Origin: Candidatus Nomurabacteria bacterium
GTDB lineage: Bacteria; Patescibacteriota; Saccharimonadia; Saccharimonadales; HK-STAS-PATE-42
NCBI GenBank assembly: GCA_023898665.1
Contig: CP060233.1
Span: forward strand, 484,368 to 548,367
Length of the DNA: 64,000 nucleotides
Direction: 5' to 3'
Shown here: piece after piece, positions 10,177-36,436 of the stretch
How the letters are laid out: the number at the start of each line of letters is the position of its first letter
Numbering within the stretch: position 1 is the first letter of the stretch
Notes under the pieces: generated by a model
Databases searched by the model: none
What the model was told of the DNA's origin: nothing
The model's input: the letters and a program-made list of their open reading frames with translations, nothing else
Position numbers and translations under genes: made by a program

Positions 10177-11367
10177 TTATTCTAATGTTCTTTCTGGTTT
10201 AACTTTTGTAATTCTAAGTGATGTTAGCAATAAGATTAACATAAATACTGCTACGACTAAGAAGCTATACTGAAAAGCTATTCCAGTTAATATTAAGCCG
10301 AGCACTAATGTAAATATTCCTTCTCCAAATGAAGTTGCTGTTATAAATATTGGATAAGCACGCTCTTCTTCATCTTTGTCAGTTAAACTGAAGAAGAATA
10401 CGTCACCTAACGGATCCAGGAAAGCTAACGGAATTGAACCGAAAATTAGGAGAGCTATAACAACAGTTGGAGAATTTACGAAATAAGCAATAATAGTTAG
10501 TACTAAAAGAGTAAAGAAACAGCTACTAAATATACTTTTAAACGATAAATATCTTAAGCTTTTAAGCGTGCTAAATTCTCCCAAAACCAATGGTAGTTGG
10601 GTTAGGCCTAATGCGGTGCCAATCTGAAATAGAGAATAGTTCTGTTGAAGCATATAAAGTGGTAAAAAAGTAAAAATGAATGACCACCATACATCCTGAC
10701 CGGACCTAATTATATAGGCTACTTTTAAACCCTTAATCCTTGTAAAATATTTTATATTTTGTATTATATTCAAACTCGAATGAACCTCTTCTGTGATATG
10801 AGGGACTCTCTCAATATAGGCGACGACTGAAGCAATAATTAGTATCAGCCCACTTGTATACATTGCTGCTTCTGAAGTAAATTTATCCATAATTAAGCCT
10901 CCCATAACTGGCCCGATCATCCATGCAAATGCTATTAACCCACTTAAAGTACCTTGAGCCAATGTGTATACACTAACTCTTCTAAAGCTATCCCTAAACA
11001 TTACAGAAAAAGCACTTGATTTTAGATTGTTGAGCACACGAGTTACTAGAAATACTCCTGTAATTATAGTTATGACTGGTAGTCCTGCTAATAATGTTAG
11101 TGCCCCTGCGGTAAAGATACATAAAGGAAATATTTTTGACTCGTCATATTTTTCTAAAATTCTGGGGATCATCATTGAAGTTATTAAAGTAATAATTACT
11201 GCTCCTCCCTTTAGAATACCGATTTGGCCATCACTTAACCCTTGTTTGTAAAAAAGAATAGACCAAACACCCGAGACTAAAGCAAAGCCAAAATTCTCCA
11301 TAACCCGAGAGGAGATAAGTTCTGGAATTGCTTTATGTCTATATAACTCTTTATATCCTGATGCCAT
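10177..11367 (-). CDS. MFS-type transporter
   Basis: 396 aa, about 12 hydrophobic segments, very AT-rich coding sequence. Confidence 0.75.
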   Translation of the reverse strand: MASGYKELYRHKAIPELISSRVMENFGFALVSGVWSILFYKQGLSDGQIGILKGGAVIITLITSMMIPRILEKYDESKIFPLCIFTAGALTLLAGLPVITIITGVFLVTRVLNNLKSSAFSVMFRDSFRRVSVYTLAQGTLSGLIAFAWMIGPVMGGLIMDKFTSEAAMYTSGLILIIASVVAYIERVPHITEEVHSSLNIIQNIKYFTRIKGLKVAYIIRSGQDVWWSFIFTFLPLYMLQQNYSLFQIGTALGLTQLPLVLGEFSTLKSLRYLSFKSIFSSCFFTLLVLTIIAYFVNSPTVVIALLIFGSIPLAFLDPLGDVFFFSLTDKDEEERAYPIFITATSFGEGIFTLVLGLILTGIAFQYSFLVVAVFMLILLLTSLRITKVKPERTLE

Positions 11368-11447
11368 CAGTTATTATTAAATTCTAGATCTGAATATTAG
11401 TATAACAAAGCCCCTGTCCTCCCAGATGTTGATGATATTAAGTGCAT

Positions 11448-11510
11448 TGGTAGCTGAAGTAGAGTCGAAATGGAACCAGGTTAGAGAGGAGCTAGTGGGA
11501 TGGTAGCCTG
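11448..11510 (-). repeat. two degenerate tRNA 3'-end-like remnants (each ends GCTACCA on the minus strand)
   Basis: The + strand tggtagc occurs at 11448 and 11501. The region between contains ggttccatttcgac (T-arm-like). The following minus-strand GGCTTTGTTAT matches the array spacers. Confidence 0.5.
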
Positions 11511-11512
11511 AA

Positions 11513-12205
11513 TTATATTGGCTCAATCACCGAATCCCAATATGCATCATGGAAGGCTGCAAGAATAGCATCTGCCCTTTTATTGTCAGCAGTGTATGAT
11601 GTAGCGACCCTTCCACCAGCTTTTTCATCAAAAAGATCATACCCATCACCTGCAATAGTTCTAACTCTGAGGGTAGTTATGGTGTCACTAGAGGGTGCTA
11701 TAGTAACGGCAACCACACCTAGTCGTTCGCTACTTCTCTCGTCATACGTACGATATGGTAATTTGCCAAGTGTGTCGGGATCTACCCACCTTAAAAAAGC
11801 CTTTCTTAGGCTCACACCCACACCTATTTCGGGAGTTCCATCCACTTCTCTAGCTACTACGACAGGTTTTGAATACATATCAACACCACCACCGCGAGAT
11901 TTTTCATGCACTGAAGTTACTGGCTGGCTGCGATATATTAAGCGTCCGTATCTAGCAGGCTCTGTTGTACCTAACCTAAACCTAGTACCCACCGAGCCAA
12001 GCAGGCTCTGTATATATGCTTTATTGTGATGTGGTAGCCATCCTGCAAACCAAGGGGTTCCTACGTCACTAGACTCAAATACATTATCGGTCCCTTCTCT
12101 ACATAGGCCTTGACCATAGTGATTTCTAAGCCTTACCATCTCCGCATATTCTTCCGCAACTCTTTCTTTAAAAGTAGGTGCAGTGCTTAATGATTTTACT
12201 GGCAT
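11513..12205 (-). CDS. hypothetical protein (cassette 3 of the tRNA-Met array, GC-richer)
   Basis: 230-aa ORF with an AGGGGG Shine-Dalgarno-like element and the motif promoter at 12268..12278. Confidence 0.55.
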   Translation of the reverse strand: MPVKSLSTAPTFKERVAEEYAEMVRLRNHYGQGLCREGTDNVFESSDVGTPWFAGWLPHHNKAYIQSLLGSVGTRFRLGTTEPARYGRLIYRSQPVTSVHEKSRGGGVDMYSKPVVVAREVDGTPEIGVGVSLRKAFLRWVDPDTLGKLPYRTYDERSSERLGVVAVTIAPSSDTITTLRVRTIAGDGYDLFDEKAGGRVATSYTADNKRADAILAAFHDAYWDSVIEPI

Positions 12206-12267
12206 AATTTTACCCCCTAAATTCTTACCCTATATAGTTTAACTATCCCAGGAATCTAGTTAAGATT

Positions 12268-12278
12268 CAAGCTTAAGC
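12268..12278 (-). promoter_or_regulatory. CAAGCTTAAGC motif copy 2
   Basis: Exact 11-mer. Minus-strand reading AGAGGCTTCTTATTGCTTAAGCTTGAAT, 62 nt upstream of the ATG at 12205. Confidence 0.55.
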
Positions 12279-12318
12279 AATAAGAAGCCTCTTTTTTTCA
12301 CAGAAGTTAAAGGGCTTA

Positions 12319-12350
12319 TGGTAGCCTTGGAGTGGAGTTGTTGGATTCAG
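12319..12350 (-). repeat. degenerate tRNA 3'-end-like remnant (GGCTACCA)
   Basis: Minus-strand reading ...GAATCCAACAACTCCACTCCAAGGCTACCA, followed by a decayed hairpin and the promoter module. Confidence 0.45.
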
Positions 12351-12443
12351 ATTAAGAAAGAACTGGTTAGTATGGCTGGTATTGTTAAAGACTATAGGAA
12401 TAGCTTAACAGTTTAGAGTATAAGGGGCTTTGATGGAAGCAGC

Positions 12444-12722
12444 CTAGCACTCAATCATACCATCAGATACAAGAGTGGCGTATGTACATGATGCACATGC
12501 GGTAAAGTCTCCTATTTGCCTTAGCTCTTTAGCCTTAACGAGGGGGCAACCCTCAGGTGCATGAGGAATAATTTTTTCTTTATTATTAACCTGAAACGCC
12601 ATCCCAACTCTACCTTGCGTTAGCTCACCCTCTTCACTGGTCTCTATAACATCAGCTCCTCCAATTGCATCACAACCTATCTTTTCAATATCTTGACCAT
12701 AGCCACCTTTTAACTCTCCCAT
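12444..12722 (-). CDS. hypothetical small protein (cassette 2, GC-richer, Cys-containing)
   Basis: 92-aa ORF with an AAGGAG Shine-Dalgarno 9 nt upstream and the motif promoter at 12784..12794. Confidence 0.55.
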   Translation of the reverse strand: MGELKGGYGQDIEKIGCDAIGGADVIETSEEGELTQGRVGMAFQVNNKEKIIPHAPEGCPLVKAKELRQIGDFTACASCTYATLVSDGMIEC

Positions 12723-12783
12723 ACAGTGAATCTCCTTTTAATTTAGTTGATAGGAATAATAATAAACCAAAGTCACGCAAAAG

Positions 12784-12794
12784 CAAGCTTAAGC
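12784..12794 (-). promoter_or_regulatory. CAAGCTTAAGC motif copy 3
   Basis: Exact 11-mer. Minus-strand reading AGAGGCTTTGTTATTGCTTAAGCTTGCTT-N17-ATTATT, 61 nt upstream of the ATG at 12722. Preceded by the hairpin at 12804..12823. Confidence 0.55.
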
Positions 12795-12839
12795 AATAAC
12801 AAAGCCTCTAATTACACAGAGGTTAAAGCTTAGGCATAA

Positions 12840-12963
12840 TGGTAGCTCTCGTCGGTAAAAGTTGGAACCTACTTAGAGATGAGCTGATAGCTATATCTGA
12901 ATTAGTAGTGTGGGCTAGGGTTGCTAACAGTAGAAGTTACTAAATGAGTGGAATTGAACTGAC
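12840..12963 (-). repeat. degenerate tRNA-Met-derived remnants (a T-arm fragment plus a tRNA-like stretch ending GCTACCA)
   Basis: The 11-mer tggaattgaac at 12949..12959 is identical to 13458..13468 inside the intact tRNA. tggtagc occurs at 12840. Confidence 0.6.
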
Positions 12964-13331
12964 TAGTCTGTATACCTTGCAGATTGAATGTCCCTTGTAT
13001 CGATACAGCAAACTGTTCCATCACCTTTTGGACCAGGATTATCGCTTTCATTAGCTGATTTAACTACTGTTCTTAATGCGTATTCTGCTTCTCGAGCTAG
13101 AGTATAGCCACCATACTCAGTACTTATACTAAAACGTGCCGCCCTAGGTGTTTGAGGTAGCCACCACTCACCTGCTACTATAGTACAACCTAAAGCTTCA
13201 GCAAGATTGCAGCCTCTGCATTGTTCTGGAAGTTCCCCTAAAAGACGTTCGGCTATTTCAGAAACTCCATCCTCAACTGAAGTTGCACGCCTTGGTGTTT
13301 TTAAGTATTCTTTTGGTGAATCAATTGCCAT
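12963..13331 (-). CDS. hypothetical protein (cassette 1, GC-richer, Cys-rich)
   Basis: 122-aa ORF containing EQCRGCNLAEALGC. Motif promoter at 13387..13397. Confidence 0.5.
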   Translation of the reverse strand: MAIDSPKEYLKTPRRATSVEDGVSEIAERLLGELPEQCRGCNLAEALGCTIVAGEWWLPQTPRAARFSISTEYGGYTLAREAEYALRTVVKSANESDNPGPKGDGTVCCIDTRDIQSARYTD

Positions 13332-13386
13332 ATAAGTTTTTTATTATTTTAATTGATATTATTCTCTCAGCTTCTTTAGGGGGATG

Positions 13387-13397
13387 CAAGCTTAAGC
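13387..13397 (-). promoter_or_regulatory. CAAGCTTAAGC motif copy 4
   Basis: Exact 11-mer. Minus-strand reading GGTTTTGTTATTGCTTAAGCTTGCAT, 55 nt upstream of the ATG at 13331. Confidence 0.55.
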
Positions 13398-13405
13398 AAT
13401 AACAA

Positions 13406-13427
13406 AACCTCTGCTTTCAGAGAGGTT
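13406..13427 (-). terminator. hairpin plus T-rich tail downstream of tRNA-Met
   Basis: Minus-strand AACCTCT-CTGAAAGC-AGAGGTT followed by TTTGTTATT. It is conserved in decayed form at 12804..12823 and around 12285..12310. Confidence 0.55.
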
Positions 13428-13444
13428 GACAATCTTAAACGTAA

Positions 13445-13521
13445 TGGTAGCGGTGACTGGAATTGAACCAGTGACCTCAGGCTTATGAGTCCTGCGCTCT
13501 AACCAACTGAGCTACACCGCC
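13445..13521 (-). tRNA. tRNA-Met (anticodon CAT; elongator-like, though tRNA-Ile2/lysidine is not excluded), CCA encoded
   Basis: Reverse complement: GGCGGTGTAGCTCAGTTGGTTAGAGCGCAGGACTCATAAGCCTGAGGTCACTGGTTCAATTCCAGTCACCGCTACCA. It has a 7-bp acceptor stem, D and T arms, and a CTCATAA anticodon loop. Confidence 0.9.
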
Positions 13522-24872: not shown

Positions 24873-25055
24873 TTAATGGCCCATAAATATAACATCATCC
24901 CGATCATTAAAGTGCCTATTAGGTATAGCAATTGTCTGATCTGGGTTTGTAGCATGTATAAAGCCGACGTCTTCAAATTTTGTGTCTATTGTCGACTGTC
25001 TTGCAGTACCCATCCTTCTGGGACTCAGATCATAGGGTATCAGTTTAGGTAACAA
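24873..25055 (-). pseudogene. DUF952-like fragment (no ATG, C-terminally truncated)
   Basis: FEDVGFIHATNPDQTIAIPNRHFNDRDDVIFM matches the DUF952 core (EGFIH.S...Q) from memory. It ends after about 60 codons, where full-length members are about 115 aa. It is in frame with the TGA of the upstream hydrolase gene and immediately follows it. Confidence 0.4.
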
Positions 25056-25076
25056 TGATTGTACTAGCTGGTAACG

Positions 25077-25655
25077 TCATGAAAGCACTTCGCTTAAGAG
25101 TTCTGGGAATACTTCACCACCAAGAGTGCTCGTTACAAAATGCCCCTTATCGGTATATTCACGATAACTAATTCCATGCACCTTTTCTTTGAGTATTTCT
25201 ACTGACTTTACCACGCTTGGCTCGTCATCACTTGATATAAATACTGTGGTGCTTTGAGTTCGAGAGGGGAATTCCGGGTCTATATCAAAATCAAAGAAGT
25301 TGGCTGTGTCGGAGACTTCATACTCAAGCGGATTAACCCACGGTGCCACAAGAACAACTTTACCTACCTTTATATCTTTATGCTCGCTTAAATAACGTAC
25401 TAAAAATCCACCACCACAACTATGCCCAACCAGAATGGTATCGTTTGTTATATCAAATCGTTCAAACTCTTTTTTCCATTCGTTGTAACGAGGCCTAAAT
25501 GGGAATGGTGGCTCGATGGACACCGCATGGATATCTTTAAGTATTAATTGGCGCTTTAGCCAGCTAAACCAGTGATCCTCACTATTACTAGGGCGCTTGG
25601 GATCATAATGTTCATCTTTGTCGGGTCTTCCGGGGACAAGTATCGCGTTCTTCAT
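25077..25655 (-). CDS. alpha/beta hydrolase, YdeN/RBBP9-like serine hydrolase
   Basis: 192 aa with ILVPG, the nucleophile elbow GHSCGG, and VLVAPW. Confidence 0.7.
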   Translation of the reverse strand: MKNAILVPGRPDKDEHYDPKRPSNSEDHWFSWLKRQLILKDIHAVSIEPPFPFRPRYNEWKKEFERFDITNDTILVGHSCGGGFLVRYLSEHKDIKVGKVVLVAPWVNPLEYEVSDTANFFDFDIDPEFPSRTQSTTVFISSDDEPSVVKSVEILKEKVHGISYREYTDKGHFVTSTLGGEVFPELLSEVLS

Positions 25656-25729
25656 ATGTTCAATTATAGCTTACAGAACTACTCATTATCACTAACAATA
25701 TACTACTTAATCCAATACCTATTCTGCGA

Positions 25730-26353
25730 CTACTTTGTTACAAGCCAAGCTCGACTCCATACAGAAATAACGCCATGATAGCTATTCTCTATGGCAAAAC
25801 CAAAACTTAGTTGTTCCCTTGCGAAATTTCCATCACCACCAAACTTGCCGTTTAGAGTAGGGCTAGTAAAATAGGTCCCATGTTTAGCCTTCTCATCCTC
25901 TATGAAAGCCTTAACCAGCTCGGCTATGTCTAAAGGTTGCTCAGAAAAACTATCATAATCACCCTCTTCCAGACTACGGTACAAGAATCTTAGTGCAAAT
26001 CTATCTGCTATGACCAACTTTCTTAAGTAACCCAGTCTTGCCTCCATACCTTCTGGGGCATCAATAGCTTGTACACCATACATGGTTCTTCTTCTGTGCT
26101 CAGTACTTGCCATACCAGCCAAAGCTACTAGCATGTCTATGGACTCAGGACTAACATCAGTTGGAAGGAATAGAAAACCACCGGTATCTTCATTACGTGG
26201 TGCTAGCAACTCTGGTCGGGGATGTCCTTTATCCTGGTAGCCATACACACCATTGCCGTTTGGCATATCTACAGTAGGGTCTATCACATCGCCAGAAGGA
26301 ACCTGCAGTATTTGTGTTTCTCTAACTCCAGTCGATTCGAAGAGACCAGGCAT
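25730..26353 (-). CDS. hypothetical protein (GC-richer orphan, second gene of a two-gene operon)
   Basis: 207-aa ORF starting 10 nt after the stop of the upstream gene. Confidence 0.55.
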   Translation of the reverse strand: MPGLFESTGVRETQILQVPSGDVIDPTVDMPNGNGVYGYQDKGHPRPELLAPRNEDTGGFLFLPTDVSPESIDMLVALAGMASTEHRRRTMYGVQAIDAPEGMEARLGYLRKLVIADRFALRFLYRSLEEGDYDSFSEQPLDIAELVKAFIEDEKAKHGTYFTSPTLNGKFGGDGNFAREQLSFGFAIENSYHGVISVWSRAWLVTK

Positions 26354-26363
26354 AGGCTACTTT

Positions 26364-27392
26364 TTAGACTCCAACTCCGTCTTCGGCCAGGTTGAGTGTA
26401 CGCAGAACGGCACAACCTTGTTGAGCCCAAAGCATTCTTGCTCTGAGCTCCTTAAGCTCCTTGCCAAGCTCATGATTAGCCGGAGCTATATTCTTGGCCT
26501 TTAGAGCCTTTAGCTCAATAGCAAAGTCACGGTCTTTATCACCAGGGTGAGCACCCATAAAAGGATATGTCCTACTGCCGGGACCATGTCCTACTGGGTT
26601 ATAGACTAGACTGGCGGCTATTAATCCTTCTGCTGTTCTGGCCATTGTTACTTCGTGTGCATTGATTGATTCTCGTGCTGTTACGAAGGCATCTGGAACT
26701 TCTCCAGCAGGTATATCAGAATTGACCGTTAGCCTGCTAAGCATTAGCTCATCAGTCTCTATATTGGTCTGTAACTCAGTTATCACCTTACGAGCTGTCT
26801 CGATTTGCTGCTCTGTCGTGTTTGCCATCTCAGGATCGGCAATAAGCATTCCCGGGACTTCTGTCGTGCTAATTCTAGCCCTTTCTAAGAAAAAGCCATG
26901 GCACATTAAGCCATTCGTTAAATAATAAAGAGCAGGGTAGTGAGCAAAGATATCAGCTTCTTGCATGGCTTCTCTTATGGCATCTTTTAGCTCCGGCGCA
27001 GTGAGAGCCCATTGCTTATCAGCTTCTTCCATTTCTCGCACAACTCTACTGGCACCCCCAAGGAATAAACGACCTGTGTCGCCTCCCTTATCTTGCCTCT
27101 CGAAAGCATACCCATCATGAGGATGGATTCCTTCTGACCTTGACACGCTTGCTTCGATACTGAATCCGTTAACTATTCCTATTGTTGAGAGTTGATGGTA
27201 CCCCTTGCCTCCGCCAATTTCAGATAGATCAGCATAACTATACGTAGCGCCCTCTTCTCCAACTGTACCTACGGCCAGATTAACATGTACATAATCTGAA
27301 TCTTCTCTTTCATCTACTTGAGTGGTAACCCAGCCTACTCTTTGTCCAGCCATTTCAGGACCAAACTCTTTAACAATTACATCTCTACTCAT
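26364..27392 (-). CDS. hypothetical protein (GC-richer orphan, first gene of the operon)
   Basis: Track ORF 26364..27431. I place the start at Met14 (MSRDVIVKEF, ATG at 27392) because the motif promoter (27429..27439, TTGTGT-N17-AAGAAT) would lie inside the longer ORF. Confidence 0.55.
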   Translation of the reverse strand: MSRDVIVKEFGPEMAGQRVGWVTTQVDEREDSDYVHVNLAVGTVGEEGATYSYADLSEIGGGKGYHQLSTIGIVNGFSIEASVSRSEGIHPHDGYAFERQDKGGDTGRLFLGGASRVVREMEEADKQWALTAPELKDAIREAMQEADIFAHYPALYYLTNGLMCHGFFLERARISTTEVPGMLIADPEMANTTEQQIETARKVITELQTNIETDELMLSRLTVNSDIPAGEVPDAFVTARESINAHEVTMARTAEGLIAASLVYNPVGHGPGSRTYPFMGAHPGDKDRDFAIELKALKAKNIAPANHELGKELKELRARMLWAQQGCAVLRTLNLAEDGVGV

Positions 27393-27428
27393 ATTACTTA
27401 CAATTCTTGCACCTTTGTTTGGACAACA

Positions 27429-27439
27429 CAAGCTTAAGC
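27429..27439 (-). promoter_or_regulatory. CAAGCTTAAGC motif copy 5
   Basis: Exact 11-mer, 36 nt upstream of the ATG at 27392. Confidence 0.55.
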
Positions 27440-27730
27440 ATTAATTAAAAGCTTTCTTCGTAAAAAAGTGAATAATGAGTGAACTTATGTTATCCTTATG
27501 TTTATATACAGATTAATTATATCTGCTGAACCTGCCGGCTGTTAGGCATTAACAGAAAATATTGAAATTATAGAGTGCGACGGCACAAGCAGATAAATAC
27601 GTCCAAATACAAAAACAATACAAACATATTAATTATTAACCTGGATACCCTAAATAGGTAGTTCTTAGGTATTTTAGATGCGATTTAATCGTATTGTTTT
27701 AACGTTCTTAAAGAAAGGGAACAAAAAAGT

Positions 27731-29083
27731 ATGGACGAACAAATTAGAATACAGCACGTCGCTATAGACGTGCTTAAGGCCGCGGAATATAACCCGCGTA
27801 AGTGGAGTGAGGAAAAGATTCAGCAACTAAGCGAAAGCATTAGGAGTTTTGGGTTAGTAGATCCGATTCTAGTGAATGGAGCCGAGAAACGAAAGAACAT
27901 TGTTATTGGAGGTCATTTTAGACTTAAGGTAGCTAAAGACTTGGGGTACGATAAAGTTCCGGTTGTATACATCAATATAGAGGATGAAGCTAAAGAAAAA
28001 GAGCTTAATTTAAGGCTTAATAAGAACTTGGGGGATTGGGACTTGGAACTTCTTAAAGACTTCGACCAGAATCTACTCGTTGATGTTGGTTTTGATAGCG
28101 TTGAGCTTGATGAAATCTATACAGAAGATTTATTAAAAGAAGATACATTTGATCTAACTAAAGAACTTGAGAAGCTAGATATTAAGAAGATTACAGTTCA
28201 AAAAGGAGATGTCTATGCACTCGGTGATTCAAGGCTGATGTGCGGAGACTCAACTGTTGAGCAAGACTTCTCTACTCTAATGGGAGAGGATAAGGCGGAT
28301 ATGTGCATGACAGATCCGCCGTACATCCTAGACTATCTAAACGCTAAACATCATGGAAAACCAACGGAAGGTTTTGGCAATAAGCGAAATAGAAAATACT
28401 TAGAAACGGATGAAATTCCAGAAGACTTTACTGAACTTTGGATGGCTAATATTGCCAAGGCTGCAAAGCCGGACTTTTCTATCATATGTTATGAGAACTG
28501 GAAGAATGTTCGAACCATTTGGAATGAAATGGAGAAACATTGGAAAATTAAGAATATGATCGTTTGGCACCTTGCCAATAGGCACCAAAACTTTGCTGCG
28601 AAGTATAAGTTCTTTTCGAAACATGATATTGCCATGGTGGGAGGATCTGGAGAGGTTCAATATAACCACGAAGAAGAACCAGATGGTCTTCAAGAAGAAT
28701 TTGAGACAGCACTTTATGCAATCTCAGGAAGGCCTCAGTGGGAAGGATATGCAAAAGGCAAAGATAAGATGTTCCAGCCTACGGACTTTATTGAGTTTAA
28801 TTCAGATGATGAGAAGAACTCAGGCCAAGGAATTATCTTTGGCACTAAACCTTTGCAGATATTGATACCGTACATAAAGGTATTAACTAAGATAGGAGAT
28901 CTAGTGGTAGAGCCATTCTGTGGGTCTGGTTCTACTTTGATTGCCTCAACTAGATTGAAGCGGAGATGCTTCATTATGGAAAAGTCACCTGTTTATGCAG
29001 AAGTAGCACTTAGACGCTGGGAAAAGGAAACTGGACTGAAGCGTGAATTAATATCAAGGTTAAGTGAAAATGAGGAGAACTAA
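27731..29083 (+). CDS. ParB-like nuclease domain fused to a DNA methyltransferase (N6A/N4C beta-class), canonical motifs
   Basis: 450 aa with a ParB/Srx-like N-terminus (YNPRKW...GLVDPILVN...GGHFRLKVAKDLG), motif IV CMTDPPYILDY, and motif I VVEPFCGSGSTLIAS. Confidence 0.85.
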   Translation: MDEQIRIQHVAIDVLKAAEYNPRKWSEEKIQQLSESIRSFGLVDPILVNGAEKRKNIVIGGHFRLKVAKDLGYDKVPVVYINIEDEAKEKELNLRLNKNLGDWDLELLKDFDQNLLVDVGFDSVELDEIYTEDLLKEDTFDLTKELEKLDIKKITVQKGDVYALGDSRLMCGDSTVEQDFSTLMGEDKADMCMTDPPYILDYLNAKHHGKPTEGFGNKRNRKYLETDEIPEDFTELWMANIAKAAKPDFSIICYENWKNVRTIWNEMEKHWKIKNMIVWHLANRHQNFAAKYKFFSKHDIAMVGGSGEVQYNHEEEPDGLQEEFETALYAISGRPQWEGYAKGKDKMFQPTDFIEFNSDDEKNSGQGIIFGTKPLQILIPYIKVLTKIGDLVVEPFCGSGSTLIASTRLKRRCFIMEKSPVYAEVALRRWEKETGLKRELISRLSENEEN

Positions 29084-29597
29084 AAAACTAGAGAAAGAAT
29101 TGATAGAAGAATTAGAGAAAACCGGGATTATATCTAGTGCCTGCGGCAAGGTTAGATTGCCCCGTGCTACTTTTTATAGGTGGTATAACGAAGATCTTGA
29201 GTTTAGGTTTAAGATTAATGAAGCTATACAGCTAGGAAGATTTAATATGGTAGATTTCGCAGAGTCTAAGCTTTTTAAGAATATTGAAGGCAACAACCAA
29301 AGAGCAATTGAGTTTTACCTGAAGAATAATAGCGATATATACAGATCAATGAATAGCCGAGACTATAATGATGCACTGCAAAGACTTGAAGATAAAAATA
29401 GAAAAACATTTGGCTTCTTGTATTCCCTAGAAGAATACTTATGGAAGCTAGTTCCAACTGAAGTCTTGGAGAAGAAGTTAATTGAGGCGGCTAGCCAAGA
29501 GGAGAAGAAACAAAAAGGTACGCCCGTGGACGAGGAGGTTAATAGGTTATTGAGTGCTAAGTATATCTCGCATATTTTTGGGAGGAGTAAGAAATAG
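29064..29597 (+). CDS. HTH protein, terminase small-subunit-like (start at GTG 29064 or ATG 29070)
   Basis: 177 aa. ACGKVRLPRATFYRWYNEDLEFRFKINEAI is homologous by eye to 62193..62603, which directly precedes a large terminase. Confidence 0.55.
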   Translation: MKMRRTKKLEKELIEELEKTGIISSACGKVRLPRATFYRWYNEDLEFRFKINEAIQLGRFNMVDFAESKLFKNIEGNNQRAIEFYLKNNSDIYRSMNSRDYNDALQRLEDKNRKTFGFLYSLEEYLWKLVPTEVLEKKLIEAASQEEKKQKGTPVDEEVNRLLSAKYISHIFGRSKK

Positions 29598-29653
29598 TGT
29601 TGTCATAATGGATATTGCGTAGAATATGTATTTATTGCTATTAATATTAAGTA

Positions 29654-30223
29654 ATGAGCGTCTCTAGCTATAGACGTAATGTCGCTAATGGACACACTGG
29701 GCCAACAACCTCGACTTGTTTTCCTGCGGCGCTTGAACAGCTTTCACCACGACATGCATTTAGTGGAGATGTATACCGAAGATATAGAGATACAGTAGAT
29801 GTAGTCTGCTCTCTTGAAGGCCAAGGACTTAGAAGGGTCAATCCCATGTTGAAGGATTTGTATGGGTATTTAGCTACTGAACTAGGATACTCATATGATG
29901 ACATATCTTTTGAAAGACTTAGATCAATTGAGGAGTTTAGAGATAGGGTATGTGATCTTCTCTCGTCTTCTAGCAGGGTTGTAGTGGACATAATGACGGA
30001 GGGATGCCATGGAGGTGCTCAAGGATATGTCCATTCGGTAGGCATTTCTGCAGTAGGTAGCCTGAGCAATCAGATGGTTAGACTCAGGAGTACATGGTTA
30101 CCGCCTGAGCTTGCCGGTGTAATTCCGCTTGACTCAGTATTTCCGCATCTTGCCCAGCTAAAAGATCCGCCACGACAAAGATATGAATTTAATGATGCCA
30201 ACTTAGCTGCTCTACCATCTTAA
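29654..30223 (+). CDS. hypothetical protein (GC-richer orphan)
   Basis: 189-aa ORF. TTGTCA-N17-AATATG lies upstream. Confidence 0.5.
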   Translation: MSVSSYRRNVANGHTGPTTSTCFPAALEQLSPRHAFSGDVYRRYRDTVDVVCSLEGQGLRRVNPMLKDLYGYLATELGYSYDDISFERLRSIEEFRDRVCDLLSSSSRVVVDIMTEGCHGGAQGYVHSVGISAVGSLSNQMVRLRSTWLPPELAGVIPLDSVFPHLAQLKDPPRQRYEFNDANLAALPS

Positions 30224-30239
30224 GTTATGATTCTAGCGC

Positions 30240-30266
30240 TAGCTTAGCTTAAAACCTTTGCGGTAT
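30240..30266 (+). repeat. partial copy (left half) of the serine-recombinase upstream segment
   Basis: tagcttagcttaaaacctttgcggtat compared with 33980..34005 tagctttcctaaaaccttcgcggtat. The sequences diverge after ggtat. Confidence 0.45.
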
Positions 30267-30383
30267 ACTCTAAAATGTCTAGGACATCCAAACAAACAGA
30301 GTGACTCGATCATTTATGTAGTTGTGCCATTAAAAGGGCAGCTACGTAAAAAAGAATAGGCATAACTGCTTGTTTGGGTCCTA

Positions 30384-30410
30384 GACAGTCCAGCGTGGCT
30401 GTCCTTTTTT
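30384..30410 (+). terminator. candidate intrinsic terminator
   Basis: GACAG-t-CCA-gcg-TGG-CTGTC followed by CTTTTTT, downstream of ORF 29654..30223. Confidence 0.5.
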
Positions 30411-30476
30411 ATGTATATAAAGAGAAATAACCTCCTGGAAGTTAATTAATAAAGTTAATAACCAAAGGGAGGTTAT

Positions 30477-30791
30477 ATGGATCAAAAGTTAGCATCAGAA
30501 AAGGTGGTTGTCGCGGCACCAATGTCACTGGCTGGTTCTGCTGCTAGAATATGGAAGATTACAGACTTAGTACCAAATGTATTTGTTAAGTGGATACTAT
30601 TGGTTCCTGTGGCTCTCATGTTGATAGCGATGGCATGGATAGTAGTATTAGTATGGTACATAATATTCGGGATATTATTGGTGCCGTATAGATTGATCAG
30701 AAGATCTGGGAGAAAAGGTAAAAGGAATGCACTACAGCATAGGGAGCTAATGCAGGCTATTCGAGCTCAAGAAGAAAAACAGAGTAAATAA
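30477..30791 (+). CDS. small membrane protein, hypothetical
   Basis: 104 aa with a strong Shine-Dalgarno (AAAGGGAGG), two TM helices, and a basic C-terminus. Confidence 0.55.
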   Translation: MDQKLASEKVVVAAPMSLAGSAARIWKITDLVPNVFVKWILLVPVALMLIAMAWIVVLVWYIIFGILLVPYRLIRRSGRKGKRNALQHRELMQAIRAQEEKQSK

Positions 30792-30800
30792 ACGCTGAAC

Positions 30801-32093
30801 CTACCCTGAACTTTTTGCAAGTGCGTTAGACATTTTCCTCGCTACTTTAAATACTGATTTAGACTGAGTGTATAGATTAAAGAAAACATCTAGCTCTCCA
30901 GCATCCATTGAGCCTATTTTCTGAGATCTCATCCACATCAACTGACTAAGTGCTGCCCCGGTATAGTCCTGCAGCCAACCAAGGTAATCATCCCTGCTCT
31001 GATGGTTGAACTCTGTACCTTCATGAACATACCTATTACGAGCATTTAGTATTAGCCATCCCTGCTCCTTCCAATAATCATCCGTAGAGAATTTAGATAT
31101 AATTCGAATTATATCTTTCTGTGATCTAGTGGCACCATTGGAGTGCCGTGTGGCTAGCTCTATGCATCTCCAAAACGACAACATTCGTAAATGTGGGTCA
31201 TTTACATTCAAGGCTCTGTCAAACTCCATCACAAACTCCTTGATGCGCCTCTCTACTGGCGATGGGTTTGCTTTCCTCAAAATGTTTAGATAGCGTTTAT
31301 AAGCTTTAACTTTATATTCATTGCCCGTAAAGGTTAGGCTGGCTTCTGATAAATTGACTTCCGACCCAACCTCATTAAGGATACTATCAAAGCCATTTTT
31401 TGATTCGATCCAATATAGGACGCGTGGATTTTGGATTGGTTTCCTACTCTTTATCTTGTCACTTCCCATATATTGAACTTTTGTATTCCTCTCCTGTGCT
31501 ATTGAGGCGGCAGCGCTTAGTGTCGCAAATGCAGACATAACCTTATTCGCAGAAACGATGTAGTCTAATGACTCAGTAGTAGCCTTAAAATAAACAGATT
31601 GATCCTTAAGGATCAATCTTAGGGATGATTCACTTTTGTAGCCTATCTTCTTATAGTCTTCCTCAAGTTGCTTCAGGTAACTGTTGCTAGGAATCGATGC
31701 CACCTCGTGATAGGACGCTCTTCTTATGTTAACTCCACCGACATTCACTTCCTTTTTAAAAATAAAATCCGTGGTTTTTGACATCTTTACATGAATACCG
31801 AAATAAAACGAATGGGTTTCTACTTTCCTCTTATTGAGCCTAAGTTCGGAATCTTTTATAAAATCTTCCACCGCAAACATTTTTTTGTTTTTTATCCAAT
31901 CACTCAACTGATTCTTGTATATGCTATATCTAAGATTCAGCTCTTCAATCGGCATACTGGAATGTTCGTAAATAGACTGAAAAAGTGCTTCAGAGTATAC
32001 GTCAAAAGCATTACCCATGATGCTTCTGTTATCTTTCCAACAATCAACAGCTTTTGTATAAAGCTCTTCTGCTCTTATTCCTCTCTTATTCAT
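30801..32093 (-). CDS. hypothetical protein with C-terminal R-x4-H (HEPN-like) motif
   Basis: 430-aa ORF. The C-terminal region LILNARNRYVHEGTEF carries the R-x4-H signature typical of HEPN RNase domains in Abi-type proteins. No other domain recognised. Confidence 0.5.
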   Translation of the reverse strand: MNKRGIRAEELYTKAVDCWKDNRSIMGNAFDVYSEALFQSIYEHSSMPIEELNLRYSIYKNQLSDWIKNKKMFAVEDFIKDSELRLNKRKVETHSFYFGIHVKMSKTTDFIFKKEVNVGGVNIRRASYHEVASIPSNSYLKQLEEDYKKIGYKSESSLRLILKDQSVYFKATTESLDYIVSANKVMSAFATLSAAASIAQERNTKVQYMGSDKIKSRKPIQNPRVLYWIESKNGFDSILNEVGSEVNLSEASLTFTGNEYKVKAYKRYLNILRKANPSPVERRIKEFVMEFDRALNVNDPHLRMLSFWRCIELATRHSNGATRSQKDIIRIISKFSTDDYWKEQGWLILNARNRYVHEGTEFNHQSRDDYLGWLQDYTGAALSQLMWMRSQKIGSMDAGELDVFFNLYTQSKSVFKVARKMSNALAKSSG

Positions 32094-32115
32094 AGATATA
32101 TCTTAACCCATATTG

Positions 32116-32180
32116 TAGCTTTCTATATATCTTAGCGTTATGATTGTTGTTTACAACCACGTTGGACAAAAATACTCAAC
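32116..32180 (+). repeat. diverged copy of the serine-recombinase upstream region plus first codons
   Basis: By-eye alignment to 33980..34045 gives about 50 of 65 identical positions. The ATG is changed to ACG and homology stops after tactcaac. Confidence 0.55.
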
Positions 32181-32211
32181 CAAATAAGATAGCGCAGGGA
32201 TGAAAGTTAAG

Positions 32212-32787
32212 TTAAATTAGCACTGGTTCAAAGACTCTCACTATTTCCTGCGCAGACTCCATCAGAATCGAATATGGAACCGGCCATAATCCAACCTGGG
32301 TATTCATTAGGTCTACTATATAAGGGTCTGCCCAAGTTGCATGCTCCGACTCGGTAAAGTTGCTCATGGGATGAGTTCCCCCGAGCAAGTTTGCAGCTCT
32401 ATCTATAAAGACTTTGCGAGGAATGTCAGTAACAACTCCTTCGTGGACAACCCTGTACGATGAGCTATTGAGCCAACCTTCAAAAGACGTAGGCACAGGA
32501 GCTGGCATTGTGCTTCTACCCAACTCGTAAGCCTTCTTAACATCTTCTTGAGTGAGCTTACCGTAAGTTACTGTAACTTCAGATATTTTAATGCCCTTAG
32601 AGGAGGCTGCGCCAGGTAGGTGGAACAACTCACTTGATTTTCCGGCCATCATCTTTTTTATGTCCTTTGGGACGGTTTGCTTATTAAAGCTTAGGCTCCA
32701 ACCTTCAGTGGTGGCTAAGCTGTCTATAGTTTCGGCAAGCTGGACCCAATTCCTAAGACAGGCTGCCAAGTCTCTAGCGACAGCCAT
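32212..32787 (-). CDS. hypothetical protein
   Basis: 191-aa ORF, no domain recognised. Confidence 0.5.
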   Translation of the reverse strand: MAVARDLAACLRNWVQLAETIDSLATTEGWSLSFNKQTVPKDIKKMMAGKSSELFHLPGAASSKGIKISEVTVTYGKLTQEDVKKAYELGRSTMPAPVPTSFEGWLNSSSYRVVHEGVVTDIPRKVFIDRAANLLGGTHPMSNFTESEHATWADPYIVDLMNTQVGLWPVPYSILMESAQEIVRVFEPVLI

Positions 32788-32874
32788 ACTAAACCTCTTT
32801 TCCAGAAAGTTAACATGCCTCTTGAGACGCTTGAGCTCTACTTATAATTCCTTAATGGGGTGCATACTAGTGCC

Positions 32875-33561
32875 TTATGGGCTTTTTAAGATATTAATTA
32901 AGAGCATACCAGCACTTGTATAGTCAGCAGACTGAGGAGACAAAGCTGCTGATGATGTCATTCCTCTGCTCGCGAGCTCAGCGTCCCTATCGATTGATTT
33001 CTTTATCTCACTTATACTCTGGTTGCTGGAGTGCTTTAATCCGACGCGGAATAGTACCTCATCTGAGTATTCCCTACCTTCAGATAATCCCTTAAGTACG
33101 TTCGTGTAGCAACTCTCTACTAACTCTGTCAGATAAAACAGGTCTTCTACCGTCGATATTCTGCCACTAACGAATGCCCTGAGTAGCTTACCAATGACAG
33201 ATGCCTTGTACTCGTCATTAACTGAATCAACCATGATCACGAGCTTGTCCGCTAGCTTCTCTTCTATATTATTAGGACCGACCTTAATTCTCTTCAACCA
33301 CTCCTCGCGTTCGTTTGCGGCCAGCTTGTTAGCTTCTGCAAGAAACTTGGCAAACTTCTTTAAGAATATCCTATCTCTTATATCAACAGAACCCTTAACG
33401 ATGGCTACGAAAGACTTGACTGCCGGAATAGCGTCTACAAACTTACTGTCTGTAACGGCCTCTAGGCCAAGTTCTGCATAGTCTTGTAGTAAGTCTGAAT
33501 AATTAGGGTTAGTGGCGGTATCAACTAGCTCTTTCTTAAGATCTTCAGCTGCTATATCCAT
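32875..33561 (-). CDS. hypothetical protein
   Basis: 228-aa ORF, predicted helical, no domain recognised. Confidence 0.5.
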   Translation of the reverse strand: MDIAAEDLKKELVDTATNPNYSDLLQDYAELGLEAVTDSKFVDAIPAVKSFVAIVKGSVDIRDRIFLKKFAKFLAEANKLAANEREEWLKRIKVGPNNIEEKLADKLVIMVDSVNDEYKASVIGKLLRAFVSGRISTVEDLFYLTELVESCYTNVLKGLSEGREYSDEVLFRVGLKHSSNQSISEIKKSIDRDAELASRGMTSSAALSPQSADYTSAGMLLINILKSP

Positions 33562-33591
33562 ATTAATCTTTACTTAATAATTAAGTCTCCA

Positions 33592-33954
33592 TTAGCTAGA
33601 TACATTAGAGCAATTCACTAGCCATTCCCTAACCTGAATACCGGACGTGTTTGAGGCCGGTGACAGTATTTCGGACGCATGAGTCTGAAGCATCTTGTGA
33701 TTAAGTAGTCCAAGGTGCTCTATACCTAGGTCATCTCCTAGGTTGTCCTCTATAAATTCTTTGCTAATTCTGAAACTACTAGAATTAACAGCATGGTCAG
33801 AACCTATGGCACATGTCTGGACTCTTAATATGTAAAGATCCCTGTCAAAGTCGTATTTTACCCAAGACTCCAAAAGGTGCTCTACACCACTAATCTTCGT
33901 TTTACCTTTACGATGGGTACTTGTTTTTTCGTCTGTGGCCATATTACAAACCAA
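33592..33954 (-). CDS. hypothetical protein
   Basis: 120-aa ORF. The likely start is Met5 (MATDEKTS). Confidence 0.45.
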   Translation of the reverse strand: MVCNMATDEKTSTHRKGKTKISGVEHLLESWVKYDFDRDLYILRVQTCAIGSDHAVNSSSFRISKEFIEDNLGDDLGIEHLGLLNHKMLQTHASEILSPASNTSGIQVREWLVNCSNVSS

Positions 33955-34007
33955 TTATACATGCAAATGGATATCAGTCTAGCTTTCCTAAAACCTTCGC
34001 GGTATGA

Positions 34008-35294
34008 TTGTTCGTTGCAGCCATGCTGGACGACAATACTCAACAATTAAAATATTGCCTGTACGCAAGAAAATCATCTGAATCAGATGAGCGTCAGGCA
34101 ATGAGTATTGATTCTCAAATAAAGGAAATGAAAGCCCTCGCACAACGCGAGGGCTTGTTAATTACAGATACTAAATATGAAAGTAAATCTGCCAAGGAGT
34201 CTGGTCAACGAGACACGTATAATGAGCTTCTGTCTGGACTTAAAAACGGCGAGTTCAACGCGATACTTACCTGGGCGCCAGATAGATTATCACGTAATGC
34301 TGGCGACCTCGGATCAATTGTTGATCTTATGGACCAAAAGAAGCTGCTGCAAATACGAACTTTCTCACAAACATTCGGCAACAATCCGAATGAAAAATTC
34401 CTACTTATGATTCTCTGTTCTCAAGCCAAGCTAGAAAATGATAACCGTGGTATTAACGTAAAGCGTGGCATTCGGGCAAAGTGTGAAATGGGATGGCGAC
34501 CAGGAACGGCTCCGATTGGATATATAAATCGCTCATTTAGCGGAGTTAAAGATATAATTGTTGATCCTGATCGTGGGCACATAATAACTGAGCTATTTGA
34601 GAAAGCCGTAAAAGGTTGGAGTGGCCGGCAGATCAAACGATGGCTAGATGAAATAAAGTTTACTAATAAATCGGGCAAAGCAGTGACGCTCAGCCAGGTA
34701 TATGTGATTCTCAATAACCAATTTTATTATGGCGAGTTTGAATATCCAGAAGGGAGTGGCAAGGTTTATCAAGGTGCTCACGAGCCACTAGTTAGTAAAG
34801 CGCTTTTTGAACAGATTCAAGATACAAGGCTTATTCCACTAAAGGCTGCCTGGGGCACAAAGAACTTCGCCTTCAAAGAGATATTTAAATGCGGATCGTG
34901 CGGTGCAAGTATAACCGCAGAAGAAAAGTTTAAACACCTGCTGGACGGTAGCATTAATCGCCACGTATATTACAGGTGCACTCGAAAGGTTGATCCTGAA
35001 TGTTCTGAAAAGTTCATGAACGAGAGAGACCTAAAGGATCAGCTACTCGGCTTTATAGCCCAAAATACCGAAGATATAGAGATCACTGATGAGTTGGCCA
35101 GAAAAGCGCTCGCTCATACAGAAGTAGTAGAGGCGGCATTGCAGATTAGAGGCATGGATTACGGTCAGCTCGATCCAATGACTGAGTACTCAACGTACGT
35201 GCTAATGAAGGGCTCGTACAAGGAACAGGGTGCATTAGTAAAGGGTATAAAAAGTAGATTTGTTATACGAGACAGAACCCTCCAGACGCTTTAG
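34008..35294 (+). CDS. large serine recombinase (the track start is TTG at 34008; ATG at 34023 is more likely)
   Basis: Resolvase catalytic N-terminus (YCLYARKSSESDERQAMSIDSQ...TWAPDRLSRN), a recombinase domain, and a Cys-rich zinc-ribbon segment (CGSCGASITAEEK...YYRCTRK). Confidence 0.9.
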   Translation: MFVAAMLDDNTQQLKYCLYARKSSESDERQAMSIDSQIKEMKALAQREGLLITDTKYESKSAKESGQRDTYNELLSGLKNGEFNAILTWAPDRLSRNAGDLGSIVDLMDQKKLLQIRTFSQTFGNNPNEKFLLMILCSQAKLENDNRGINVKRGIRAKCEMGWRPGTAPIGYINRSFSGVKDIIVDPDRGHIITELFEKAVKGWSGRQIKRWLDEIKFTNKSGKAVTLSQVYVILNNQFYYGEFEYPEGSGKVYQGAHEPLVSKALFEQIQDTRLIPLKAAWGTKNFAFKEIFKCGSCGASITAEEKFKHLLDGSINRHVYYRCTRKVDPECSEKFMNERDLKDQLLGFIAQNTEDIEITDELARKALAHTEVVEAALQIRGMDYGQLDPMTEYSTYVLMKGSYKEQGALVKGIKSRFVIRDRTLQTL

Positions 35295-36436
35295 TGCCGT
35301 AGATCTAGCGGTTGTCCGTATGGATTAATGCCTGCATGTACGGTTGCAGCAATAATATCGTTATAATAAGCAATATCCTGCCTTGGTGTCTGGGCTACAA
35401 ATAATTTAGCGTTTTCGGGGTTAGGTGGCCTATCGAAGTGGTCATTAATGCTCCGTGCATTCTGAGATGCTTCAAACCAGTATGTCTGCATATACCAGAC
35501 CTGCTGTACAATCTCCGTGAACTCTTCTTCAGTAGCACCGTACGCATTTAGGAAGTAAGCGATACTTGGATTGTATGGCATCTTCAAGAACTCGTAATGG
35601 CCCCGATGAAACATCCCATTCACAGAGTGTAGTGGATGGGACAACTCAATCTCTAGTTGTTGCCGTCGTTCATCACCACCAAACTCACTTAGTGGCTTAC
35701 GTGGTATATCGAACTCTCGACGTGAGCCAGTATGATACCAGGCAAATACTCCTGCGGCGTTGAGTAGAGCCCTATATCGATGCTCCTCGGGTACAGGCAG
35801 ATCAGTGGTTTCTACTCCTCCTGCGTAAGCGCTGGTAATAAGTAGGACTAGATCTGCGTCAGCTCGTGACAAAAGATAGTCGCTACTGCTTCTCCAGGGC
35901 ATAGATTTTTCTTTTTCTGCTTCCGACTCATCTATATAACCTCTCAAGAACTCTAGAATCGTATCATTTCCAATAAATGCGAATGACCCCAAAGGCTGTT
36001 CTCTCAAAATCGCATCTAGCGCTATCCTGCCAAGTTCACCAGCTTGAGCTGTATCCGAGACTTCACGCGCTTTATGAGACTCCTCTAATACTCGCGTCTG
36101 AACAGGCACAATATCTACAAAGTGGGAATCAGAATACATGTATTCCGGGTACTTCTCCCAAAGATCTGAATAGTAATCAACACCTATCCGTGTGCCTATA
36201 ACAGGAACGCCAGGAAGTTGAGGCGCACGGATAAGGGGCTCCCCAGTTTCTTCTACAATCGGTGGTATGCCTGCGGTCCAGTACTCTCTGTATTGTACTT
36301 TTTCACGCTGACCCTCAATCTCTCTGTATCTTGTCGGACCCTGAGTCCGCATACCAAGATCATAGAGTGCAAGAATAGGTAAGTCTTGGAATCGCTCTAG
36401 ATGCTCAGGCCTTTCTGCAAAGTGGATTTCGCGCAT
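35291..36436 (-). CDS. hypothetical protein (GC-richer orphan)
   Basis: 381-aa ORF overlapping the recombinase stop by 4 nt (convergent). Motif promoter at 36473..36483. Confidence 0.55.
   Translation of the reverse strand: MREIHFAERPEHLERFQDLPILALYDLGMRTQGPTRYREIEGQREKVQYREYWTAGIPPIVEETGEPLIRAPQLPGVPVIGTRIGVDYYSDLWEKYPEYMYSDSHFVDIVPVQTRVLEESHKAREVSDTAQAGELGRIALDAILREQPLGSFAFIGNDTILEFLRGYIDESEAEKEKSMPWRSSSDYLLSRADADLVLLITSAYAGGVETTDLPVPEEHRYRALLNAAGVFAWYHTGSRREFDIPRKPLSEFGGDERRQQLEIELSHPLHSVNGMFHRGHYEFLKMPYNPSIAYFLNAYGATEEEFTEIVQQVWYMQTYWFEASQNARSINDHFDRPPNPENAKLFVAQTPRQDIAYYNDIIAATVHAGINPYGQPLDLRH

Follow-up and report, generated by a model that had tools for sequence, protein, structure and literature searches.

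Results

A tRNA-Met gene followed by single-gene cassettes

The locus described here lies in a 64-kb stretch of the Candidatus Nomurabacteria bacterium contig CP060233.1 (hereafter the window, i.e., the whole stretch that was analysed, whose numbering is used throughout), and consists of a tRNA gene followed by three single-gene units, or cassettes, that are separated by related repeats, which we call spacers. The tRNA, a tRNA-Met(CAT) encoded on the minus strand (13445..13521), anchors the array and is the sole tRNA of the 64-kb window found by ARAGORN and Rfam (tRNA score of 70.9 bits). Down the minus strand, the gene order is a histidine kinase gene (plus strand), tRNA-Met (minus strand), three open reading frames (ORFs) named ORF1, ORF2 and ORF3 and an MFS transporter gene (all on the minus strand), a DUF4367 gene (plus strand), and then PEGA, Rpe, BipA and GltX. 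ORF1 (12963..13331, minus strand, 122 aa) and ORF2 (12444..12722, minus strand, 92 aa) are ORFans: among 5.8e9 proteins, ORF1 has no match beyond itself and ORF2 has no homologue. ORF3 (11513..12205, minus strand, 230 aa), to which no function is assigned, is the only cassette of the window with homologues; there are three (76, 60 and 57% identity), and all reside in arrays of other genomes, among them those of the loci L008, L010 and L012. None of the three ORFs has a Pfam, PHROG, NCBIfam or PDB sequence match, and the AlphaFold model of ORF3 is of low confidence (pLDDT of 52.7) and too poor for a fold search. The original prediction for this locus, made from the DNA letters, had described the intact tRNA-Met(CAT), the three minus-strand ORFs and an array devoid of integrase; the tRNA and the ORFs are present as described, and there is no integrase among the array genes.

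It should be noted that the first pair of the tRNA is G1-U72, and that its anticodon stem is closed by a non-canonical A-G pair in the Rfam alignment. The gene may encode either an elongator tRNA-Met or a tRNA-Ile2 (lysidine).

The cassettes are separated by members of one repeat family

Using an nhmmer profile built from 16 spacer copies, all from other genomes (the window copies were excluded), we found exactly four significant matches in the 64 kb, each of them within the array and on the minus strand: spacer S2 (E 1.3e-17), spacer S1 (E 9.6e-14), spacer S3 (E 2.1e-12) and the tRNA 3' end together with the module behind it (E 3.7e-6). The next-best match in the window has an E value of 0.46. 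The repeat is 110-180 nt long and begins 0-25 nt past each stop codon, an extent far greater than the one originally given for the repeated module.

Spacer S1 (12782..12963, minus strand; E 8e-42 in the first profile search) is full-length. It has a T-loop-like left end at 12945-12959, GCTACCA at 12840-12846, a hairpin at 12805-12822 and the motif GCTTAAGCTTG at 12784-12794; its left end is identical to tRNA positions 13454-13468 at 14 of 15 bases, which bears out the T-arm fragment reported after ORF1. Spacer S2 (12265..12444, minus strand) is also full-length and belongs to a divergent subtype, with GCTACCA at 12319-12325 and GCTTAAGCTTG at 12268-12278. A spacer of the Patescibacteria contig JAUPUA010000009.1 shares 88% identity with S2, the shared part being a discrete unit of ~160 nt between unrelated genes. 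Spacer S3 (11395..11520, minus strand) is truncated and the most decayed of the three; it has the core GCTACCAA at 11447-11454 and a weak hairpin, ends in TTTGTTATACTAATA and contains no GCTTAAGCTTG. This terminal spacer type is also present in L008 (copy D). The GCTACCA at 11501, which had been taken for a separate tRNA remnant, lies inside S3, where other copies read ...CAGCCAT.... The heptamer occurs 12 times in the window (5.5 expected), five times in spacers or the tRNA; the one at 12032 is a chance occurrence inside ORF3.

The tRNA is directly followed by module 0 (13384..13444, minus strand), which comprises TTACGTTTAAG, a hairpin with a T-run at 13406-13427 and GCTTAAGCTTG at 13387-13397, 55 nt upstream of ORF1. 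It contains a terminator-like site, and its profile E value is 1.5e-12 (3.7e-6 with the other-genome profile). The final bases of tRNA-Met and the following T read GCTACCAT, at the position that is held by the repeat core in other units, and the repeat profile aligned on the tRNA-Met locus from CACCGCTACCAT onward. In the first unit, the genuine tRNA-Met 3' end would serve as the core. The repetition of a module composed of the hairpin, TTTGTTATT and GCTTAAGCTTG had been predicted correctly: it is present at 13386-13427, 12783-12824 and 12267-12308, and the outer copies are 88% and 74% identical to the middle one.

An alignment of 20 copies, read in the direction of the tRNA, reveals five parts in the spacer. 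Full-length copies start with (i) a left end, RGTTCAATYCC...CTTAAG, that resembles a tRNA T-loop, followed by (ii) ~50-95 nt that are variable yet alignable, (iii) a ~30-nt core, GTTCCATTTCGACGCTACCTCAGCTACCAT, that is (near-)identical in most copies of several genomes and ends in GCTACCAT, (iv) a 6-7 bp hairpin with a T-run, of which there are two sequence types with loops of 4-8 nt, and (v) either TTATTGCTTAAGCTTG or the extended -10-like TGnTATAMT with the next ATG a few nt on. The core looks like the T-arm and acceptor end of tRNA-Met; spacer identity to the tRNA is confined to the last 8-12 nt and the T-loop-like pieces, and the cores finish in (G/C)CTACCA(T). Judging from the motifs in part (v), it is plausible that each spacer supplies one promoter to the next cassette gene. 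In JAUPUA010000009.1, several cassette ORFs (for example at 1973, 2592 and 3237 of L014) start 1-7 nt past the TGnTATAMT at the right end of a spacer, which leaves no room for a Shine-Dalgarno leader and hence suggests leaderless mRNAs.

The motif GCTTAAGCTTG is an 8-bp palindrome plus TTG, is kept upstream of the ORF3 homologues in L008, L012 and L010, and resembles a promoter or operator element specific to this lineage. It is not confined to the cassettes: three of the six exact copies in the window, all six being on one strand, are outside the array (817-827, 27429-27439 and 36473-36483, minus strand). These lie ~36 nt upstream of the ATG of ORFs without a Pfam match (75, 342 and 381 aa), and the promoter-like motif therefore appears to be used outside the array too.

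The tRNA-sense strand of the spacers contains 10-17% G, is C-rich and is unstructured, and RNAalifold found 0 consensus pairs over 15 spacer copies. We reject the possibility that the spacers are tRNAs, tRNA pseudogenes or structured RNAs: ARAGORN and Rfam (E up to 10) find the true tRNA alone, so that the degenerate tRNA-like stretches proposed originally go undetected, and the fold z scores are -0.5 and -1.4, no better than for shuffled sequence. They are not attC-like sites either, since they have no palindromic fold, the strand is G-poor and the conservation is at the level of sequence.

Similar arrays with different genes are present in related genomes

The spacers, first traced elsewhere via the loci of the three ORF3 homologues, constitute a repeat family that occurs in tight, co-oriented arrays on several Patescibacteria contigs. 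A unit consists of one gene and a spacer; the gene is usually co-directional with the tRNA and sometimes reversed, and the spacers hold their orientation where the adjoining gene is reversed. The 744-kb contig L008 contains five spacers in one orientation, between which lie a dCMP deaminase gene, the homologue of ORF3, an ORF of 171 aa and two reversed ORFs; one extra copy was found there that had not seeded the profile. L008 shares the DUF4367-PEGA-Rpe-BipA flank with the window, and of the array genes only ORF3 is common to both: the dCMP deaminase, the ORF3 homologue and the 171-aa gene stand in place of ORF1, ORF2 and ORF3. The original prediction had named two outcomes that would speak against it, spacer similarity at chance level and a fixed gene order in related genomes. 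Neither was observed, since the window spacers match the other-genome profile beyond chance and L008 and the other arrays differ in content; the prediction therefore withstands its own refutation test.

JAUPUA010000009.1 is a 9.7-kb contig of a Patescibacteria metagenome-assembled genome, and was found by an exact 21-mer of the core. It contains nine significant spacer copies and a weak tenth, all on one strand and 0.6-1.6 kb apart, with ORFs 1-60 nt from the spacers; its cargo includes GrpB, GNAT, a shikimate-DH-like protein, histidine phosphatase and many unknowns. Over all arrays, dCMP deaminase and DUF2268 join this cargo, again with many unknowns, and its make-up resembles that of integrons. 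Spacer copies are also present in L012 and in L020-L025, the latter being reached through the micro-protein described below. In three genomes, i.e., the window, L022 (GCA_964397855.1) and L024, the array begins at the 3' end of a tRNA-Met(CAT).

A parallel array headed by tRNA-Trp(CCA) is located in L010 (6742-10850), and includes a 250-aa gene and a 227-aa ORF3 homologue. Its two ~180-nt spacers are of a different family and end in GAGTCTCTGCCA (...CTGCCA), matching the end of tRNA-Trp. A similar hairpin and an TTTTGCTTATGCTTG module come after the tRNA-Trp and likewise after the spacers. A conserved ORF on the opposite strand was not established for the L010 spacers, of which there are only two copies.

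Some further features of these arrays deserve mention. L020 (JGI Ga0490044_010250) is a mirror-image palindrome with identical genes in opposite orientation on both arms; this is probably an assembly artefact, and its copies were therefore treated with caution. In L023 (4608-7100), the spacer array adjoins a PemK/MazE toxin-antitoxin pair and an rve-family transposase; these toxin-antitoxin neighbours recall the toxin-antitoxin cassettes that stabilise large integron arrays. Finally, a small and very basic ORF, MAKHKNWHGASRKRALKKKLKALKKK, is found at the edge of or inside arrays in L008 (13237-13317) and in the joined L013+L014 of JAUPUA010000009.1 (1442-1576), with 74% DNA identity.

Outside Patescibacteria contigs, a phage or plasmid origin was rejected because the 2-kb array has no blastn match in 50,697 phage and 72,556 plasmid records. 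Three pattern scans of IMG/VR gave nothing or GC-rich chance matches, and L015, the single match of the metagenome scan, was likewise rejected as due to chance.

The spacers contain a conserved micro-ORF on the opposite strand

Read on the other strand, the CAT that ends the core becomes an ATG, from which a frame of 28-36 codons extends in most copies; its consensus is MVAEVASKWNLIR.ELI.MAEIV...R. The micro-ORF in S1 (12839..12943, plus strand) encodes 34 aa (MVALVGKSWNLLRDELIAISELVVWARVANSRSY) and is convergent with ORF1, and the one in S2 (12318..12416, plus strand) encodes 32 aa (MVALEWSCWIQIKKELVSMAGIVKDYRNSLTV). S3 retains a remnant (11447..11506, plus strand) with a TTG start that is frameshifted and comprises 19 codons. 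By their coordinates, the micro-ORFs are convergent with the upstream cassette and overlap its 3' region.

In 22 of 26 copies the frame is open through 27 codons, without stops. Over codons 11-27 of these 22 copies, the mean BLOSUM62 score of differing codons is +1.00, compared with -0.88 +/- 0.31 for column shuffles (0/300 reach the observed value) and with -2.1 to +0.5 for the other five frames, and the diversity at the three codon positions is 0.44/0.37/0.58. Codons 1-10, which cover the tRNA-like core, have diversities of 0.20/0.29/0.25; there is no third-position excess here, and the constraint on this part is therefore at the DNA level. Taken together, the substitution pattern shows protein-level purifying selection on the micro-ORF, which we predict to be a protein-coding micro-gene. 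An ORF across the spacer on the tRNA strand was rejected: its frame is open but scores far below that of the opposite strand.

A profile of the window peptides retrieved ten relatives from 1.84e9 protein representatives, all called as stand-alone ORFs of 31-54 aa in other metagenomes. We discarded the idea that the peptide forms the start of some longer protein (e.g., an integrase), as the two long proteins that matched did so only over stretches of ~10 residues. The micro-peptide has no Pfam or NCBIfam match, and it is amphipathic and charged rather than hydrophobic. The coding signal, together with the absence of a longer protein with this N-terminus, implies that the spacers are selected units and not decaying debris. 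Thus, the tRNA-anchored array of single genes with repeated boundaries holds as originally predicted, but the boundaries are not merely decayed tRNA ends, as they have only 8-12 nt of identity to the tRNA and carry a selected micro-ORF.

Sequences on either side of the core reassort

The tRNA locus and the spacers become homologous abruptly at GCTACCAT, and the homology extends rightward through the module. Such a sharp left edge is what an attL-type site beside P-core-P' junctions predicts. Among 26 copies, the mean pairwise identity is 0.81 for the core, 0.63 for the left segment (the body of the micro-ORF) and 0.61 for the right segment (the hairpin region), and the similarities of the left and right segments are essentially uncorrelated (r = 0.16, 325 pairs). 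Individual reassortants illustrate this: J9_8378 and L012_2217 have identities of 0.84 in the left segment, 1.00 in the core and 0.60 in the right segment, while J9_734 and J9_4833 are 0.59 identical on the left and 0.93 on the right. This independent reassortment of left and right points to the core as the crossover point. The homology between the ORF3 cassettes of the window and L008 runs from TTATTGCTTAAGCTTG to the stop codon. Spacer subtypes are 88-94% identical between genomes, and the ORF3 and DUF4367 genes of the same genomes are 69-74% identical at the DNA level.

The units decay with their distance from the tRNA. Module identity falls from 88% to 74%, after which the promoter motif is missing, and S1 and S2 have intact micro-ORFs, S3 a truncated one. 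In L022, too, the micro-ORF nearer the tRNA is intact and the more distant one is dead.

Flanking genes and other features of the window

The MFS transporter gene (10177..11367, minus strand) is either the distal flank or the last unit of the array; it has no spacer behind it and is missing from the syntenic L008. The G+C content of the cassettes is 0.425-0.444, within one standard deviation of the window mean (0.40 +/- 0.043), and we therefore reject the view that they are compositionally foreign. They are indeed richer in G+C than their flanks, as had been pointed out, but this does not make them unusual for the window: the MFS and histidine kinase genes at either side are the unusually AT-rich ones (G+C of 0.34).

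Elsewhere in the window, a large serine recombinase (34008-35294, plus strand) contains Resolvase, Recombinase and Zn_ribbon_recom domains. The ORFs around it have no family match, and a ParB-N/DNA-methylase fusion (27731-29083, plus strand) is encoded nearby; the region 25000-37000 probably represents an integrated mobile element of its own. Another ParB-methylase paralogue is present at 60865-62196. The region 48105-60660 is a defence-like cluster, with a DUF2779 protein, a 1045-aa helicase with RE_endonuc, ORFs of 611 and 659 aa, DUF4391 and a 1133-aa SNF2 helicase.

Discussion

We propose that the locus is the tRNA-proximal end of an integron-like cassette array, or recombination platform, of a type that is shared by a group of genomes of the Patescibacteria (candidate phyla radiation, CPR); we regard the chances for and against this proposal as about balanced. 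According to this model, cassettes would be gained, lost and reshuffled through crossing-over in the core, effected either by a site-specific recombinase encoded elsewhere or by homologous recombination with the core as portable homology. New units would enter beside the tRNA, older ones would decay distally, and each spacer would insulate and express its cassette. The abrupt onset of homology at the tRNA, the uncorrelated similarities on the two sides of the core, the limits of the ORF3 cassette homology, the recurrence of S2 between unrelated genes and the decay gradient fit this model.

The arrays resemble integrons and clusters of attC sites lacking integron integrases (CALIN) in several respects. 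Both consist of tightly packed, co-oriented genes that are mostly single and unrelated to one another, many of them unknown or of the GNAT type. Between the genes lies a repeat of ~60-180 bp whose copies resemble each other more within one genome than across genomes. A minority of the cassettes is reversed, there is a fixed entry end, and the older units look more decayed. There are also differences. Neither IntI nor attI was found at the loci studied here, the spacers do not have the folded form of attC, and the entry site is a tRNA 3' end. Integron cassettes are mostly promoterless single genes in one orientation; the units here are single-gene and mostly co-oriented, and each spacer has promoter-like motifs. 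The spacers appear to carry the promoter of the next gene, and they encode a micro-protein. In addition, no stable link exists between a gene and one spacer subtype.

The possibility that the recombinase is encoded elsewhere has parallels. CIMEs (cis-mobilizable elements) are integrase-less units flanked by attachment (att) sites that occur in tandem through accretion and can be mobilised by a recombinase in trans. No cognate integrative and conjugative or integrative and mobilizable element was identified for the present arrays, however, and their units are far smaller and more numerous, with spacers that contain a micro-ORF. The pdif modules of Acinetobacter plasmids are small gene modules between short sites that are moved by the housekeeping Xer recombinases encoded elsewhere. 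Those sites are 28-bp XerC/XerD sites in alternating orientation, whereas the spacers are direct repeats, longer and tRNA-like.

Several observations speak against the proposed platform. No recombinase was found in or next to an array at any of the loci examined; no tyrosine recombinase was detected within ~8 kb of the array (Pfam table) or among the ~35 window ORFs that were scanned or looked up, and the only recombinase found in the window, the large serine recombinase, is 21 kb off and of a type not expected to leave tRNA-end repeats. Nine contigs with an identical ORF3 all have the same ORF1-ORF2-ORF3 order, and there is thus no polymorphism within the species; neither an excised circle nor an empty site was observed. 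Orthologous ORF3 cassettes have different spacer subtypes on either side, so that the gene is not stably tied to one spacer, unlike an integron cassette and its attC. The modules of one genome resemble each other more than they do those of other genomes, which could result from gene conversion instead of mobility, and homologous recombination with the core as portable homology accounts equally well for the reassortment. Finally, the hairpins are weak (-7 to -8 kcal/mol) and not above shuffles, and the promoters are only consensus-like.

An alternative is that the array is passive debris, left by integrative elements (tycheposons, islands or prophage-like elements) that serially targeted tRNA-Met and were stripped of their integrase and most of their genes, the spacers being functionless attR-type scars. 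A tRNA 3' end does mark the start of the array, the last bases and T-loop-like pieces of the tRNA recur in the direct repeats, and decay grows with the distance from the tRNA. As expected of tandem tRNA targeting, the arrays of the window, L022 and L024 are each headed by a full tRNA whose 3' part recurs inside as direct repeats, although the exact identity is short. There is also a precedent in Prochlorococcus, whose islands contain tandem elements split by partial tRNAs as well as degenerate remnants (10.1101/2020.12.28.424599). The tycheposons of Prochlorococcus and the tRNA-bounded hypervariable regions of SAR11 are likewise situated in streamlined genomes, with a full tRNA at the start of the island and tRNA-end direct repeats inside, and newer insertions have been proposed to push older ones inward, leaving integrase-less remnants. 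But a tycheposon is several kb long and encodes a recombinase (tyrosine or large serine) together with replication genes, while the units here are single genes of 0.3-0.9 kb without element genes: no integrase or replication-module gene or remnant was found in ~30 units at 10 loci by Pfam tables and family scans, and the genes are packed within a few nt of the spacers. The tycheposon repeats, moreover, are plain att-type partial tRNAs, whereas the spacers are conserved composite units in which only 8-12 nt (plus the T-loop-like pieces) match the tRNA, below the usual att duplications. Neutral decay would be expected of scars, yet the spacers differ less between genomes than coding DNA does and hold an ORF under purifying selection. 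We therefore consider debris an unlikely explanation.

The micro-gene itself might be what has been amplified. It would have spread with its regulatory region as a selfish or addiction unit, resembling a type I toxin silenced by the convergent transcript of the cassette, or in the manner of a miniature inverted-repeat transposable element (MITE), and the likeness to tRNA would be incidental or reflect the first insertion site only. In favour of this view are the strong coding signal, the relatives called as stand-alone genes and the lack of any longer protein with this N-terminus among the representatives searched, as well as the ~160-nt unit that the window and another genome share between unrelated genes. 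Each micro-ORF is convergent with the upstream cassette, whose 3' untranslated region would fully overlap it, and toxin-antitoxin genes lie beside one array. As in type I toxin-antitoxin systems, we thus see a very small ORF in multiple copies, overlapped by a convergent transcript; but the peptide, being amphipathic and charged, is not of the membrane-toxin type, and no antitoxin RNA is defined. Neither do the copies behave like MITEs, in that none is found in the other 62 kb of the window, those of each array are clustered and co-oriented, and no terminal inverted repeats or target duplications are seen. Amplification of a small gene does not need codons 1-10 to be constrained as DNA and to match the tRNA end in three genomes, and ~4 of 26 copies are frameshifted yet retained. 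On balance, this explanation seems improbable to us.

Very improbable is a third view, that the spacers are non-mobile regulatory repeats (insulators composed of a terminator and a promoter, or of a C-rich, G-poor region for Rho loading) in a fast-evolving but vertically inherited cluster, for although it fits the composition of their tRNA-sense strand, the hairpin with T-run and promoter-like motifs that come next, and the identical gene order in all conspecific contigs, the spacers keep their orientation despite reversed neighbour genes, gene content is wholly different between related genomes, ORF3 homologues occur in arrays at different tRNAs, and the tRNA anchoring and invariant 30-bp core are left unexplained.

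We return, then, to the cassette platform. In its most specific form, it would be an undescribed gene-capture system of CPR/Patescibacteria, in which the tRNA-Met 3' end is the entry, the sequence-conserved, tRNA-derived 30-bp cores are the sites, and each cassette comes with its own terminator, promoter and a gene for a micro-protein of ~30 aa that starts inside the core. We put this forward tentatively and consider it rather unlikely. A full-text literature search on Patescibacteria with integrons and gene cassettes yielded, judged by title and abstract, only papers on resistomes and ecology, none of them visibly on such an array, and one on CPR genomic islands retrieved nothing that mentions CPR. 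As far as can be judged from sequence comparison, the new aspects would be the tRNA-derived, sequence-conserved core and the selected micro-ORF starting inside it; otherwise the system appears to be a variant of the cassette-array and tRNA-island systems.

The genomes of CPR bacteria are very small and contain few mobile elements that can be recognised as such, and little is understood of the way in which these bacteria obtain accessory genes. If the proposal is correct, a CPR lineage would possess a dedicated gene-shuffling platform that is compact, tRNA-anchored and equipped with a self-expressing spacer, which would constitute a second, independent solution to the problem solved by integrons. 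If the gene-capture form of the proposal holds as well, the start codon in the core would couple the state of the site to the expression or function of the micro-protein, be it in cassette addiction, in regulation or in the directionality of recombination. The 30-bp core and the micro-protein family provide a handle for searching for the recombinase and for mining cassettes in metagenomes, and the micro-ORF is a further case of a conserved gene of fewer than 40 aa within seemingly intergenic repeat DNA.

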